Shown here piece after piece: positions 1-5,266 of a DNA stretch of 64,000 bases. The translations under genes were made by a program, and so were the position numbers. How positions within the stretch are numbered: the first letter of the stretch is position 1; every line of letters starts with the position of its first letter. The DNA comes from Bigelowiella natans CCMP2755. Lineage: Eukaryota > Protista > Cercozoa. The notes under the pieces are model-generated. The model saw nothing but the letters and a program-made list of their open reading frames with translations. It had not been told where the DNA came from and did no database searches. The stretch spans positions 45,313 through 109,312 of the forward strand of contig ADNK01000413.1 in NCBI GenBank assembly GCA_000320545.1. Direction: 5' to 3'.

Positions 1-142
1 CTGGTTTAGCAAGACCAAGTTCAATCAATGTGTCTCCATTTTGTCCCTTGTGATTGTCAATGTTCTTCACAAATGCTTCTACAGTTTCATCATCAACCTT
101 TGGTTTTGTTGGAACTTTTTCATCCTTGTCATCATTGCTCAT
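1..142 (-). CDS. Viral hypothetical protein, N-terminal part (continues beyond window start)
   Basis: ATG at 142-140 opens a frame (MSNDDKDEKVPTKPKVDDETVEAF...) that runs to the window edge. Confidence 0.4.
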   Translation of the reverse strand, partial: MSNDDKDEKVPTKPKVDDETVEAFVKNIDNHKGQNGDTLIELGLAKP

Positions 143-408
143 CACAACATGACTGTGCATTTCACAATGATTTCAAACGAACATTGATCAAATGATGCTG
201 TCATGCCATCAACTTTTTTAGGAACCTTTGGAATTTCTTTTTTCTTCTTTTCCTCCTCTTTCATTTTTGGTTTACGAACATCCTCAAAATGTTTCTTGTT
301 GTGTTCACTTGTCTTCTCTTTTTTTTCTTGACATCTCTTCTTTTGGTGTGCTGTCATTTTTTCTCTGTTTGGTTTGTGACATGCTTTTTGTTTTTCCTCA
401 TCAGACAT
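142..408 (-). pseudogene. Small Lys/Glu-rich viral protein, TpA-mutated
   Basis: ACHKPNREKMTAHQKKRCQEKKEKTSEHNKKHFE matches the common viral Y-Y-x-x-N-R-E-K-I-x-x-Y-Q-K-K-x-Y pattern with Tyr replaced by His/Cys. Confidence 0.55.
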
Positions 409-466
409 TTGTCAAAACAGTTTGGATTTTTGCATTTGAAAAAAATGATCTCAACTCAATTGACAT

Positions 467-1696
467 GTGAGCAATTTGAGAGAAACAGAAAAAAGGTTCA
501 CACGACAGTGGAACAATTGTTTTCCATTGATGGAAGAAGATGGAAAAGGAAATGAAGTTCCAAGTGAAGTCAATGTTGATCATCTTCTTTGGATGATTTT
601 CAATGAAGACTCCATTGGAGGTGACAGAAAACTTGTGGTGAGAAAAACTGACACTGCGGTGATTGGTCCAATGACAGAAACAAGAACACATTTGTCGAAC
701 ATGGAAAAGAATTCAATCACATGTGCCAATGACAACGGATTTGACATCAGTGATCCAACAGAAGATTCAAGAACACCACCAAGAGCACAAACACCGCCAA
801 AAATGACAAGAACACCAGCACCACCACCATCTAGAAATGGGTCAAGATCATCAACACCATCGCCAAGAGGACCAGCACCAAGAGGACCAGCACCAGGAGG
901 ACTAGCACCAGCACCAGCACCAGCACCAGCACCAGCACCAGCACCAGAAAACAGACAACAACAGATGGCACAAGAAGCAAAACTACCAGCATTAGCAAGA
1001 TCATCTGGTCGTGATGTTCCAACACAAGCAACACCATCACAAAGATTTGACCAACAACCAGGTTTCAGTCCAACCCCAGTTGTTCCTGCAACGGCACCTG
1101 CTGGATTTGAATCAACACCAGATGACACAGGTGAGAAAAAATTGACAGATTCATCTTTGAAAGAAATGAAAGAACATGATGATTTTCAGAGACCGCTACC
1201 TGATGTTTCAGAAAGACAAAATGCAATCTGTCAGACCAAGATGAGGCAAGGATTGATCCAAGAAGCAACTCATCCATTCGGAGGTAAACGTGATGTGACC
1301 AATGAATCACAAATCAATTGCAATGCTGATCATGAAAACCCATTCATCAAATCTCAAGCAAGATTGAAGGTGAAAGAAATGGATGACACGAGCATCACAC
1401 ACAAACCTCAATTGCAAGAGGCCATTGATGATGCCAAACCATCTGCTAAATTGCCAGCAAAGATGGCCAATGTGAAAGCACTAAAAGTTGAAGTTCCAGT
1501 TGAACCTCCGTTCAAAGCAAGAGGTTTTGATCCAAAGGAATTGCGACCTGCATTTGAAATCAATTGCACTCACGGCATGGTGCCTCATCACATGTCTCAA
1601 GCATGCAAAAAGAAGAAAGATGAAGTAGCAGATGTGCATGCTGCTCACATCAAATCAAAACAAATGAAAGATGCTTCTGATTTGTTTTTTCAATGA
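467..1696 (+). pseudogene. Viral Pro/Ala-rich hypothetical protein (409 aa), TpA-mutated
   Basis: Long ORF with a GTG start preceded by T, a TGA stop, no Tyr in 409 aa and a (PA)n linker. Confidence 0.6.
868..946 (+). repeat. Coding hexamer repeat (CCAGCA)n giving a PAPAPA linker
   Basis: Directly visible tandem repeat. Confidence 0.9.
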
Positions 1697-1739
1697 AAAT
1701 GACTCAAAGATGTGAACACACATGAACACAATGAAACAT

Positions 1740-2327
1740 GTGCCAGATCATGCCAAAGGAAAAATTTGCAAACTGCACATGTCAGGAAATGAAGATTCAA
1801 TTTGTCATGGTTCTGCCATTCAAAGTTCAAGTGTGAGATCATCTGGTCATAGAAAAAATTTGAAATGTTGGAAAAAGGGTACAGGTTCATTCATGACATC
1901 ATTTGAATCATTGGAAAATGAAAATGCAATCACAACCCTTGTTGAAAATTTCCCTTGTGATTCTGAACATGAATTAGAAGCCAGAGAACGATTTTGCATG
2001 GAAAACAACAAATGCATCAATGAAAATGCACCCACAAGAACTGCAAAAGAATGGAGAGAAACAAACAAAGAACGATCAAAACAATGCAGACAAGATGACA
2101 AAGAACGAATGGCAAAACCAAACAAAAAATGTCATGAAGATGACAAAGAATTGTCAAAGGAAAAAAGAAAAGAACACTTTGCGAATCACAGAAAAAAGAA
2201 CAAAGAAAAATTTGAAGAAAAAATCAAATGTCCCTTCTGTGGTTGTTCTGTTGGAAAATCCAATTTGAAAAGACATCAAAGAACCAAAAAATGTTCAAAA
2301 GCACAAGAAGAATTCAAACAAAAATGA
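1740..2327 (+). pseudogene. GIY-YIG endonuclease with C-terminal C2H2-like zinc finger, TpA-mutated
   Basis: KGKICKL...ICHGSAIQ corresponds to the viral KGKIYKL...YxGSTxQ motif. It also has LVENFPC...ELEARE and a C-terminal CPFCG...LKRHQRTKKC. The likely original start is now GTG at 1740. Confidence 0.85.
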
Positions 2328-2383
2328 ATGTTTGAAATGATTGTCGTTTCATTGTGATTGTCATCATCCATTGCAATCACAAT

Positions 2384-3139: not shown

Positions 3140-3395
3140 TCAATGTGGATGAACTTTTGCCAGAATCACATTCAAAAAAATCAGGAACAAATCATCATCA
3201 TTTGACAGTCGTCCAAAAAAAAACAGCAAATCCTTTTTCACATTCAAAAAAATCAGCTGTCATGGTCCCAGCTGTCAAACCTGCTGGTTTTTTTGCGAGA
3301 GAATTTGTGAGAAAAGAAGTGCCTGTGAGCATCAAACGAACATTTGAAAGGTGTCAAATGTCAATTAATTGTCATCTAAACGTTGACAATGACAC

Positions 3396-3959
3396 ATGGG
3401 AAATGACAATTCTTCACCACCAAAACCAAAACCAATCCACATTCCAAAGCCACATTTTCCAAAACCAAAACCAATGCATGTTCCAAGAATTCCCACAGAA
3501 AAAGCAACTAAGCCTGTGAACAAAGGAACAAAAAAAGGAGCAAATCATCTTGAAGACAAACTGACACATCCAGTTGCTGCTGCAAATGAAGCTGAAGGAG
3601 CATTGAGTGAATTGGATTCTGTGTCTCACGGCAGTCTTGGTGTTGTGCATCAGGGATCTCAAGTTGTGTTTCCACAATTTGGATTGGCCGTCACATTGGC
3701 CACTGTAGCAGATGAAATGGCTCACAATGATGGTGAGTCATCAAAAAAAACATCAAAAAACATCTCATCAAATCAGGCTACAGGAGGTGTTTGTGGTGAT
3801 TGTCAAAGTGTCAGAACCATTGAAAAATCAGAGCTTGTGACTGAAATGGAAAACAAATTCAATGCAGATTCACACGACTCACCAGATGTTGATGGAGCAA
3901 TTCCAGTTTCTGTGGAAGGCAAAATTTCTGTTGATGATGCGACCAGAAAACTCAGATGA
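3396..3959 (+). CDS. Viral hypothetical protein with MGNxxS-like N-terminus and Pro/Lys-rich segment (mutated)
   Basis: 187-aa ORF with TCTA 17 nt upstream of the ATG and no Tyr. Confidence 0.55.
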   Translation: MGNDNSSPPKPKPIHIPKPHFPKPKPMHVPRIPTEKATKPVNKGTKKGANHLEDKLTHPVAAANEAEGALSELDSVSHGSLGVVHQGSQVVFPQFGLAVTLATVADEMAHNDGESSKKTSKNISSNQATGGVCGDCQSVRTIEKSELVTEMENKFNADSHDSPDVDGAIPVSVEGKISVDDATRKLR

Positions 3960-3960
3960 A

Positions 3961-4200
3961 TCACTTTTTCTCATCTTCTTTGATTTCAGGACTTGGCAGA
4001 AATGTTCCAAGTGTCAGAATGACAACGTTTGAAAAAGCATTTCTTTCTGCTACATTTTTTGCTGTTGCAACTTGAAGCACACTGAATGTTGAAACACTGA
4101 ACATTGCACCAGATTTCAGGAAAAACTCTGAAGCCCTTTTGTCAGAAGTTGAACAACAAGACTGGTGAGCATCAATGTGTTTTTCATCCTCTGATTCTTT
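3961..4200 (-). CDS. Small viral two-TM membrane protein (SCC...D...FF...LG.FLPSP type), mutated; start uncertain
   Basis: QSCCSTSDKRASEFFLK...VVILTLGTFLPSP resembles small membrane proteins of PLV/NCLDV-like viruses. Confidence 0.5.
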   Translation of the reverse strand, partial: KESEDEKHIDAHQSCCSTSDKRASEFFLKSGAMFSVSTFSVLQVATAKNVAERNAFSNVVILTLGTFLPSPEIKEDEKK

Positions 4201-4371
4201 TCTGTGTGGCATCTCTTCCATCATTCTGTCTTTGCATTCTTCAGAATCATTCATGTCTGCAACTTTTTGTTGTTTTTCATCTGCTTTGTGTTCGATGGAT
4301 TGTGGAACAATCATTGCAAACAGTCACAAACAAAATGCCACAATGATTTTTTTTCTGTTCTTGTGATGACA

Positions 4372-5266
4372 ATGGGATCATTTGATGAGATGAAAGATGG
4401 ATTCAAAAAGGCTGTTAATGATGTGCAAAAATCATCAGGGCATGCAACAAAGCAAATCAAAAAAGACTTCACAAAAGCAGGAGATGCTGTCAAAGATGTG
4501 TCTGTCATGGCAGGTGATGAAATCAAAAAAGGAGCCCATGAAGTTGGAGATCAACTGAAAAAACAAGAAGTCCAACAGGCACTCGCAGGGACTGGAATTG
4601 CTTTAGCTAATGTTGCTACTGGAGGGGCATTTGCTCCAGAATTAATGGCAGGTGGATTAGCAATTCAAGGTGCCATTGAGTCAGCACATTCAAAATCTTT
4701 ACCTCATGACACTGTGCTGCAGGCAGGAACCGCATGTGCCACTGGTGAATTAGATTTTAACAAAAGAGGACCAGGTGTTGGTTCATTTAGCGAAGGTATT
4801 TCTAATTTGAGAGAAGAAGGTGTGAAACGATTTGATGGTGTTGAAGATGAATTATCAGATGAAGCTATGAAAAGACATGATGATGTAAAAGGCAAAGCAT
4901 CAGCAAGATTAGGATTTGATCCAACACAAATGCAATCTACAGATGAAGCTATGGATTCATTAAAAGCACAAATTGACAAAAATAGAAATATTAGAGCAAC
5001 AGCTAATGGATTTAAGAAGTGGAAAAGCATTAGAAAATTTAACAAACAAAGCAAAAAGTGAATTAAAAAAAGAAGTAAGTAGTCAAGGCAATAAAATACT
5101 AAATGATGTTTTAGGTAAAGTGTCTCAAAAGAAAAGCAAAGTGAAAAAAGCCATGAAAAAAGTTAAGAAGAAGATGAAATCTTCTAAAGGCAAAATGGCT
5201 GATGTCATTAAAAAGGTGAAACAAAATCAACAGAGATACAGAATGTCAAGTGGCATTGTGAATTAA
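4372..5266 (+). pseudogene. Viral MG-starting amphipathic/basic protein, apparently frameshifted near 4975-5060
   Basis: The ORF from MGSFDEMKDGFKKAV overlaps a second Lys-rich ORF (4973-5266) that lacks its own ATG. Confidence 0.5.

Follow-up and report, generated by a model that had tools for sequence, protein, structure and literature searches.

Graded and flank-dependent TpA hypermutation of an integrated DNA virus, and of non-viral DNA in the same stretch, in Bigelowiella natans

In ascomycete fungi, repeat-induced point mutation (RIP) acts premeiotically to convert C to T, mainly by changing CpA to TpA, creates stop codons, and requires a RID-type methyltransferase. The present study concerns a 64,000-nucleotide stretch of the Bigelowiella natans CCMP2755 genome (contig ADNK01000413.1, positions 45,313 to 109,312; hereafter the window, whose own numbering is used for all coordinates), and in particular the AT-rich DNA between its left edge and roughly 12450, an integrated DNA virus of small size and Polinton-like type in which polarised changes at the dinucleotide TpA (TA) run in the direction opposite to RIP's CpA→TpA. 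TpA-specific A→G hypermutation is already known in this species, and the window constitutes a confirmation of it at another locus, to which it adds a rule relating loss to the bases on either side of the target, a graded load along a single element, and targets that are not viral.

According to the main text of the preprint that described the process (bioRxiv 10.64898/2026.01.13.699255), two viral regions accounted for 231 of the 302 new mutations recorded in mutation-accumulation lines, a rate about 1000 times that of the background. The mutations in these regions were nearly all AT→GC, all of the latter lay at TpA, and 210 of 211 GC-biased mutations were transitions. The targets were integrated DNA from NCLDV (nucleocytoplasmic large DNA viruses) as well as from virophages, 124 TpA-poor clusters were recognised genome-wide, a parallel with RIP was drawn, and an ADAT2 deaminase was proposed, an ADAT2/ADAT3 pair being named. 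A first-pass annotation of the window, made from its letters alone, had treated the process as one without a characterised pathway, a view overtaken by this direct measurement in B. natans.

The present locus has in common with that account the species, the TpA→TpG/CpA change on both strands, and a viral target. The two regions in which rates were measured, a 186-kb NCLDV region and the end of a scaffold of about 42 kb, are both different from it, the scaffold being shorter than the window. It may be among the 124 published clusters, since the windows covering 1-5000, five consecutive ones of the 13 1-kb windows tested, lie within the published cluster thresholds (Rho TpA ≤0.43; Rho CpA+TpG ≥1.52; bioRxiv 10.64898/2026.01.13.699255). 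Two differences were apparent: the end state reached in the window is near complete, with a TA observed-to-expected ratio (O/E) of 0.06 as against 0.45 in the NCLDV region of the preprint, and the gradient within the element is a feature not reported in the preprint's main text. A literature search returned no other relevant report of a TpA hypermutation process. Like RIP, the process brings about closely packed transitions at one particular dinucleotide, hitting either strand of DNA that is repeated or selfish; in both, copies diverge independently and neighbouring host genes are spared. However, the C→T changes of RIP make stop codons, whereas the A→G changes in B. natans remove TpA and make none; and RIP is premeiotic, whereas the B. 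natans process has been seen in clonal lines and in a single-copy region (bioRxiv 10.64898/2026.01.13.699255, main text).

Counts along the element established the extent of the loss. Successive kilobases of 1-4000 contain 8, 8, 4 and 5 TA (O/E 0.04-0.09), with TG/CA in excess throughout (O/E 1.70-1.81 per kb), as against 117 TA per kb at 11-12 kb, in agreement with the first-pass annotation, which had counted about 8 in the first kilobase against dozens per few hundred bp at 11-12 kb and had noted the excess of TG/CA. Over 1-4550, 27 TA remain where base composition predicts 425 (Poisson p 2e-142). All eight open reading frames (ORFs) examined that start before 4600 contain no Tyr and end in TGA: on the forward strand, ORFs of 388, 201, 238 (267 stop to stop), 127, 187 and 231 amino acids (aa), and on the reverse strand, ORFs of 117 and 88 aa. 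Five such ORFs had been listed earlier, the quoted lengths of three (409, 261 and 285 aa) being close to stop-to-stop values. The absence of Tyr is not diagnostic on its own, because a 202-aa ORF at 10044, in TA-rich DNA, is likewise Tyr-free. The predicted decay of conserved motifs was also found: that of the GIY-YIG endonuclease gene at 1722..2327 now reads KICKL/CHGSA, and residues 143-144 of the packaging ATPase are GG (GGT GGA), where six of six relatives have GR.

That the letters themselves are not an assembly error is indicated by a contig of 1075 bases that matches 1609-2683 with no differences in six of six DNA runs, the sequencing runs thus supporting the assembled bases. These runs, which may represent one strain and may include the source of the assembly, vouch for the letters only. 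In an RNA run, of which about 6% was read, mean depth did not exceed 0.13 per strand over 1-4500, compared with 12 at 12.6-13.05 kb, a near-absence of reads in keeping with silent targets. The interval 1..4600 to which the effect had originally been assigned stands as the near-saturated zone; the affected DNA exceeds it, with graded loss continuing to about 10.5 kb and recurring in four non-viral patches.

The direction and specificity of the change were assessed against relatives of two viral proteins. Four environmental relatives of the ATPase retain 10-13 Tyr each, whereas the window ATPase has none, and at those positions where the four relatives agree and the window differs, 29 of 36 changes fit TA→TG/CA; control rules centred on AA, CA and GA accounted for 1, 1 and 0 of the 36 respectively, and CpG decay for 0. 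The same polarised design applied to the major capsid protein gave 13 of 20 changes fitting the rule, and 0/20 for the controls. The polarity so defined rests on the proteins of environmental relatives; the sole locus returned by scans of viral and metagenome contigs for the relatives' DNA, was discarded as a spurious bacterial match. Either adenine of the palindromic TA step changes, giving TA→TG or TA→CA about equally often (52 to 42 for the strand balance of unambiguous outcomes). The first-pass claim of A→G change at TpA, affecting both strands of an integrated virus, was upheld, and none of the three outcomes named there as refuting it was observed: relatives have kept Tyr, differences between copies are enriched for TA→TG/CA, and the sequencing runs agree with the assembled letters.

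Several copies of the element exist: the Bigna1 proteins include two sister ATPases as well as two sister capsids, and about 120-130 contigs per run align to it at <90%. A motif of the ATPase that reads SQYYK or TQYYK in the four relatives has become SQCCK, SQHYK and SQHHK in three B. natans copies, and, being altered differently in each, indicates that every copy was hit on its own. In DNA comparisons between copies, 41 of the 53 listed places fitted the rule (25 single changes plus 8 TG/CA swaps, at 33 sites), as against a chance expectation of 28% of positions; the rows compared were the best supported 40 of 2291 together with all 19 others, three rows beyond 12450 being left out, and so do not form a random sample. 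Three of the TG/CA swaps lie inside aligned genes, where the residues of relatives indicate that the ancestral dinucleotide was TA and not CG: the same ancestral TA has been resolved in opposite ways by different copies.

The rate of TA loss depends on both flanking bases, ATA/TAT sites being lost fastest, CTA/TAG sites slowest, and CTAG sites being nearly immune. Of the 27 TA surviving in 1-4550, one is at an ATA/TAT site and 21 are at CTA/TAG sites; relative to the right end of the element, retention in 1..4600 is 0.005 for ATA/TAT, 0.045 for other sites and 0.18 for CTA/TAG. Among the adenines visible in the capsid gene, change had affected 14 of the 40 in ATA/TAT sites as against 3 of the 64 elsewhere (p 8e-5), the ATA adenine being changed at 9/21 and the TAT adenine at 4/12. 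The survivors could be fitted by a model giving sole control of the rate to the base 3' of the adenine (T 0.014, A 0.19, C 0.22, G 0.97), but this model failed independent tests and was rejected. Because that model failed and both adenines are hit, the flank rule is best described as a palindromic property of the whole site. The main text of the preprint contains no flank rule, although one might be contained in its Fig. 2B and Table S2 (bioRxiv 10.64898/2026.01.13.699255).

Four TA-depleted islands in the host part of the window, none of them viral, exhibited the same dependence. In host background the TA share is 0.28-0.33 in every flank class, whereas in the four islands pooled, the fraction TA/(TA+TG+CA) is 5/337 for ATA/TAT, 3/210 for other sites, 28/183 for CTA or TAG and 33/53 for CTAG, counts for which tandem CTAG runs were masked and bounds were set by eye after the pattern had been seen. 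An unbiased check confined to 4 of 128 host windows, picked regardless of flanks, gave 6/14 CTAG sites remaining TA as against 10/275 others. Within 15000-15790, TA persists at 0/125 ATA/TAT or other-class sites, 12/53 CTA/TAG sites and 14/18 CTAG sites. The islands are rich in surviving CTAG, some of it as tandem runs.

The island at 41811-43390 includes, at 42060-42494, a 73% copy of the intact non-viral repeat at 12726-13129. All 14 TA of the intact copy have been lost from it, and its own four TA are all CTAG; 7 clean TA→TG/CA changes and none in reverse were recorded between the two, along with 51 other differences in an alignment that is partly poor. A TA-erased copy and an intact copy of the same non-viral repeat suggest that silencing or repetition, and not viral origin, selects targets. 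With respect to duplication as the trigger, the virus and the 42-kb island are both repeats and non-viral DNA has been hit too; on the other side, the intact 12.7-kb copy and the multi-copy right end of the element have been spared. CpG is little depleted in the four islands (O/E 0.72-1.06), from which it follows that loss of CpG is not part of the process.

Along the element the load is graded, retention of ATA/TAT sites rising from left to right through 0.005, 0.32, 0.58 and 1 across the four zones of Table 1, with the best change point in TA density at 4580-4600 and a weaker second step near 7080. CpG O/E follows the same gradient as TpA (0.26, 0.28, 0.41 and 0.55); this gradient in CpG is seen in the virus and not in the islands, and may reflect cytosine methylation of the viral domain. 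A graded load is in keeping with a domain encroaching from the left and weakening in the direction of the host genes. For the sharp step at 4.6 kb, an alternative that we consider less likely than not is a junction of two differently mutated copies, made by recombination, gene conversion or assembly merge. The confinement of the change point to 4580-4600 speaks for such a join, as do the complete absence of Tyr from both sister capsids where the window copy has 15, the lack of any bridging contig among those listed, and the clustering of differences nearby (4557, 4798, 4803). Against it, the ATA/TAT class declines in further steps to the right (0.32, 0.58, 1), the ORF that crosses the step keeps its frame, and only the longest pieces were listed (there are 591 more), so that an absent bridge proves nothing.

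Taken together, the near-saturated zone is best read as the end state of the reported TpA A→G hypermutation, likely due to a host adenine deaminase and likely aimed at silenced repeats, a reading to which we assign a probability of roughly 55%. Adenine deamination is favoured because the changes are pure transitions at one dinucleotide. Deoxyadenosine would be deaminated to inosine and copied as G; the putative enzyme would read the double-stranded site, or its ease of melting, and not one strand, a proposal arising from the palindromic nature of the flank rule; targeting would follow a chromatin domain; and the effect would be to disable selfish DNA. Loss of Tyr, with altered Ile, Leu, Lys and Asn codons, should kill the encoded proteins, and since TA→TG/CA cannot create a stop codon, dead ORFs stay open as they lose Tyr. 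The host-defence role proposed at first pass can be retained in this conditional form; the targets in the window are not only viral.

A RIP-like route in two steps, in which a host enzyme modifies the A or T of TpA in duplex DNA and deamination or mispairing follows, is in our judgement rather unlikely as the alternative to direct deamination. Its attractions are that the flank preference is palindromic (a 5' A and 3' T speed loss, a 5' C and 3' G slow it), that either strand is hit, as expected of an enzyme reading duplex DNA, that TA→TG on one strand is TA→CA on the other, so that the damaged base could be T, and that the fastest class contains the ApT step, the context of AMT1-type N6-methyladenine (6mA) in the accounts available of that enzyme. 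However, the saturated zone shows hardly any depletion of ApT steps that lie outside TpA (ApT O/E 0.86), TAA and TAC sites without ApT have also been erased (retention 0.045), and AMT1-type 6mA is described in those accounts as marking active and not silent chromatin; no B. natans methylome was found, nor is one mentioned in the available text of PMC12695648.

Recruitment of a Pol eta-like polymerase for error-prone patch synthesis in the affected regions, another of the candidates put forward at first pass, fits badly and is very improbable. Pol eta mutates A in WA motifs and has a TA hotspot on both strands, according to the part of PMC7884765 available; but WA includes AA, for which the saturated zone has an O/E of 1.32, and 1/36 changes in the ATPase and 0/20 in the capsid are accounted for by an AA→AG rule, while the preprint's main text places its GC-biased mutations, virtually all transitions, only at TpA. 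The notion that no adenine process operates, TA having been lost through decay of 5-methylcytosine at CpG or avoided by the virus itself, draws on the low CpG O/E of the element and its fall along the same gradient, and is refuted by the polarised changes: a CpG rule explains 0/36 and 0/20 of them, the islands lose TA with CpG little depleted, Tyr and codon positions containing TA persist in relatives, and the right end of the element keeps its TA.

Several observations weigh against a silencing-directed adenine deaminase and must be set beside it. A search for fresh mutations yielded 19 differences at 98% likeness that could not be told apart from sister-copy alleles; among the listed contigs that are long and unique, all are free of differences except for two with three each in one run. 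The largest target in the preprint is single-copy, which argues against repetition alone as the trigger (bioRxiv 10.64898/2026.01.13.699255, main text). In the 12.7/42-kb pair, TC stands opposite three of the 14 TA, an outcome for which the rule offers no explanation. The first model of flank dependence failed: sister copies showed no 3'-base effect (221 sites, likelihood-ratio test p 0.45), hits within ATA/TAT sites fell on the TAT adenine 6 times and on the ATA adenine 12 times (p 0.24), and in the between-copy rows the 3'-base signal was not significant (p 0.11 and 0.17). Known deaminases, as far as the sources consulted describe them, do not match. ADARs, TadA editors and amphioxus ADAT2 share the A→G outcome, and the first two favour a 5' U/T; but ADARs act on RNA and prefer UAG (PMC10661471), whereas CTA/TAG sites survive best in the window, and TadA editors favour a 5' T by only 25-52% (PMC8989541), a modest bias compared with the restriction to TpA seen here. 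For amphioxus ADAT2 the preferred adenine context is GAA, and the enzyme additionally deaminates the C of TCG (PMC10354150), whereas GA in the window has an O/E of 1.24 and a GA→GG rule explains 0/36 changes; this comparison is with the amphioxus enzyme and not with ADAT2 of B. natans.

A more specific formulation, which we put forward as a possibility still short of even odds, is that B. natans possesses a second kind of RIP, in which a mutator distinct from both ADAR and ordinary ADAT2 would recognise the double-stranded palindrome around TpA (ATAT best, CTAG immune), edit whichever strand, and be directed to silenced repeats whatever their origin, invading from a domain and dying away at host genes.

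The assignment of the element rests on its gene content (Table 1), by which it would work like a Polinton-like virus whose left end lies beyond the window. Host identity was confirmed by a Ca-ATPase exon (43536-44981) in the host part, 100% identical to a Bigna1 protein, the next match being 81%. With Polinton-like viruses and virophages the element shares a double jelly-roll capsid, an A32 ATPase, a GIY-YIG nuclease, a helicase, AT-rich DNA and a multi-copy state; it differs from Polinton-like viruses in a capsid family that lacks a Pfam match and is about 10% identical to every solved capsid. Virophages (Lavidaviridae) are marked by a virophage-type capsid and a maturation protease. In the visible part of the element no protease, integrase or polymerase was found, and no terminal inverted repeat was detected within 1-14000, the left end being beyond the window in both cases. 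All six relatives of the ATPase (56-76% identity) match Pfam Pox_A32, whereas the window's own copy no longer does so.

Neither the capsid protein nor any of its 21 relatives gave a Pfam match. A double jelly roll was modelled, with a predicted local distance difference test (pLDDT) score of 87, for relative P0133, which is 69% identical to the window capsid, the input being a 39-sequence alignment headed by a relative; a first capsid model, built from 7 sequences (pLDDT 37), was unusable. Every PDB match listed for the P0133 model was a viral capsid structure (E between about 1e-13 and 1e-11), and the scores of Sputnik and mavirus did not surpass those of giant-virus capsids. Members of the capsid family have a beta-rich domain inserted at about positions 160-235 of the profile, many copies of which also occur in large unnamed proteins.

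Table 1. Zones of TA loss, viral genes and non-viral features of the window
Feature	Coordinates	Strand	Remarks
Near-saturated zone	1..4600		TA O/E 0.06, TG/CA 1.77; extends past the left edge of the window
Partly mutated zone	4601..7080		Retention ATA/TAT 0.32, other classes about 0.77 (measured 4551-7000)
Lightly mutated zone	7081..10500		Retention ATA/TAT 0.58, other classes 0.97 (measured 7001-10500)
Least mutated end, baseline	10501..12450		Three site classes equally frequent (p 0.62), TA O/E 0.88
Pro-rich ORF, 388 aa (410 stop to stop)	530..1696	+	0 Tyr, no Pfam match
GIY-YIG-type endonuclease with C-terminal C2H2-like finger	1722..2327	+	0 Tyr; Atlas 0.96 to GIY-YIG clusters
A32 packaging ATPase	2423..3139	+	0 Tyr; relatives match Pfam Pox_A32
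187-aa ORF	3396..3959	+	0 Tyr, no Pfam match
231-aa ORF (288 stop to stop)	4366..5061	+	Crosses the 4.6-kb step, frame unbroken
Major capsid protein, double jelly-roll family, 554 aa	5335..6999	+	Partly mutated, 15 Tyr kept
238-aa ORF, candidate minor capsid protein	7117..7833	+	Position only; weak DUF5901 match below cut-off
Short second GIY-YIG remnant	10986..11192	+	Tyr residues kept; Pfam GIY-YIG E 7.6e-5
Helicase-like gene, two pieces	11293..12432	+	UvrD_C_2 match in second piece
Intact copy of multi-copy non-viral repeat	12726..13129	+	Upstream of CRN/RHS-like gene; 14 TA
TA-depleted island	15000..15790		Bounds by eye; survivors CTAG or CTA/TAG
TA-depleted island	19370..20020		Bounds by eye; same survivor pattern
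TA-depleted island	28570..29280		TA O/E 0.22, no Pfam match
TA-erased island	41811..43390		30/34 surviving TA are CTAG

Further features of the element were recorded from left to right. At 517 there is a loose end in runs X2 and X9, where another copy continues with unrelated sequence, perhaps an insertion. Contigs of run X19, taken by guess to be RNA, skip 6662-6731, 6775-6830 and 7315-7400, stretches with GT..AG ends that lie inside the capsid gene and the next gene, and which may indicate splicing of some copy or chance joins. An internal duplication (8083-8195 and 8860-8975, 79%) lies within a 520-aa ORF, possibly a fibre protein. At 11181-11182 loose contig ends occur on both sides in the DNA runs and the GIY-YIG remnant abuts the helicase-like gene, for which reasons a deletion has probably occurred there in the window copy. 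A stop codon at 11656-11658 splits the helicase-like gene in the window copy, other copies differing at that point. Summed contig depth over 11250-13050 is 2-4 times that of the rest of the element, an increase that places the right end, together with the flanking host DNA, in larger repeat families; despite this they are the least mutated part. The junction of virus and host is spanned by a 21-base inverted repeat (90%) at 12493-12513 and 12633-12653, and beside the virus lies an intact Crinkler/RHS-like host gene (13183-14871, forward strand; Atlas 0.98, no Pfam match), the upstream part of which is highly multi-copy in the DNA runs.

For the biology of B. natans, the window narrows the questions of enzyme and of targeting. 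Any enzyme put forward must reproduce the flank rule, which thus serves as a fingerprint; neither ADAR nor amphioxus ADAT2, the basis of the published candidate, matches it, and it can be compared immediately with the 231 new mutations of the published list. Tyr-free open ORFs in the B. natans genome would be dead genes annotated as real, whose Pfam matches fade, as the loss of the Pox_A32 match by the ATPase illustrates.

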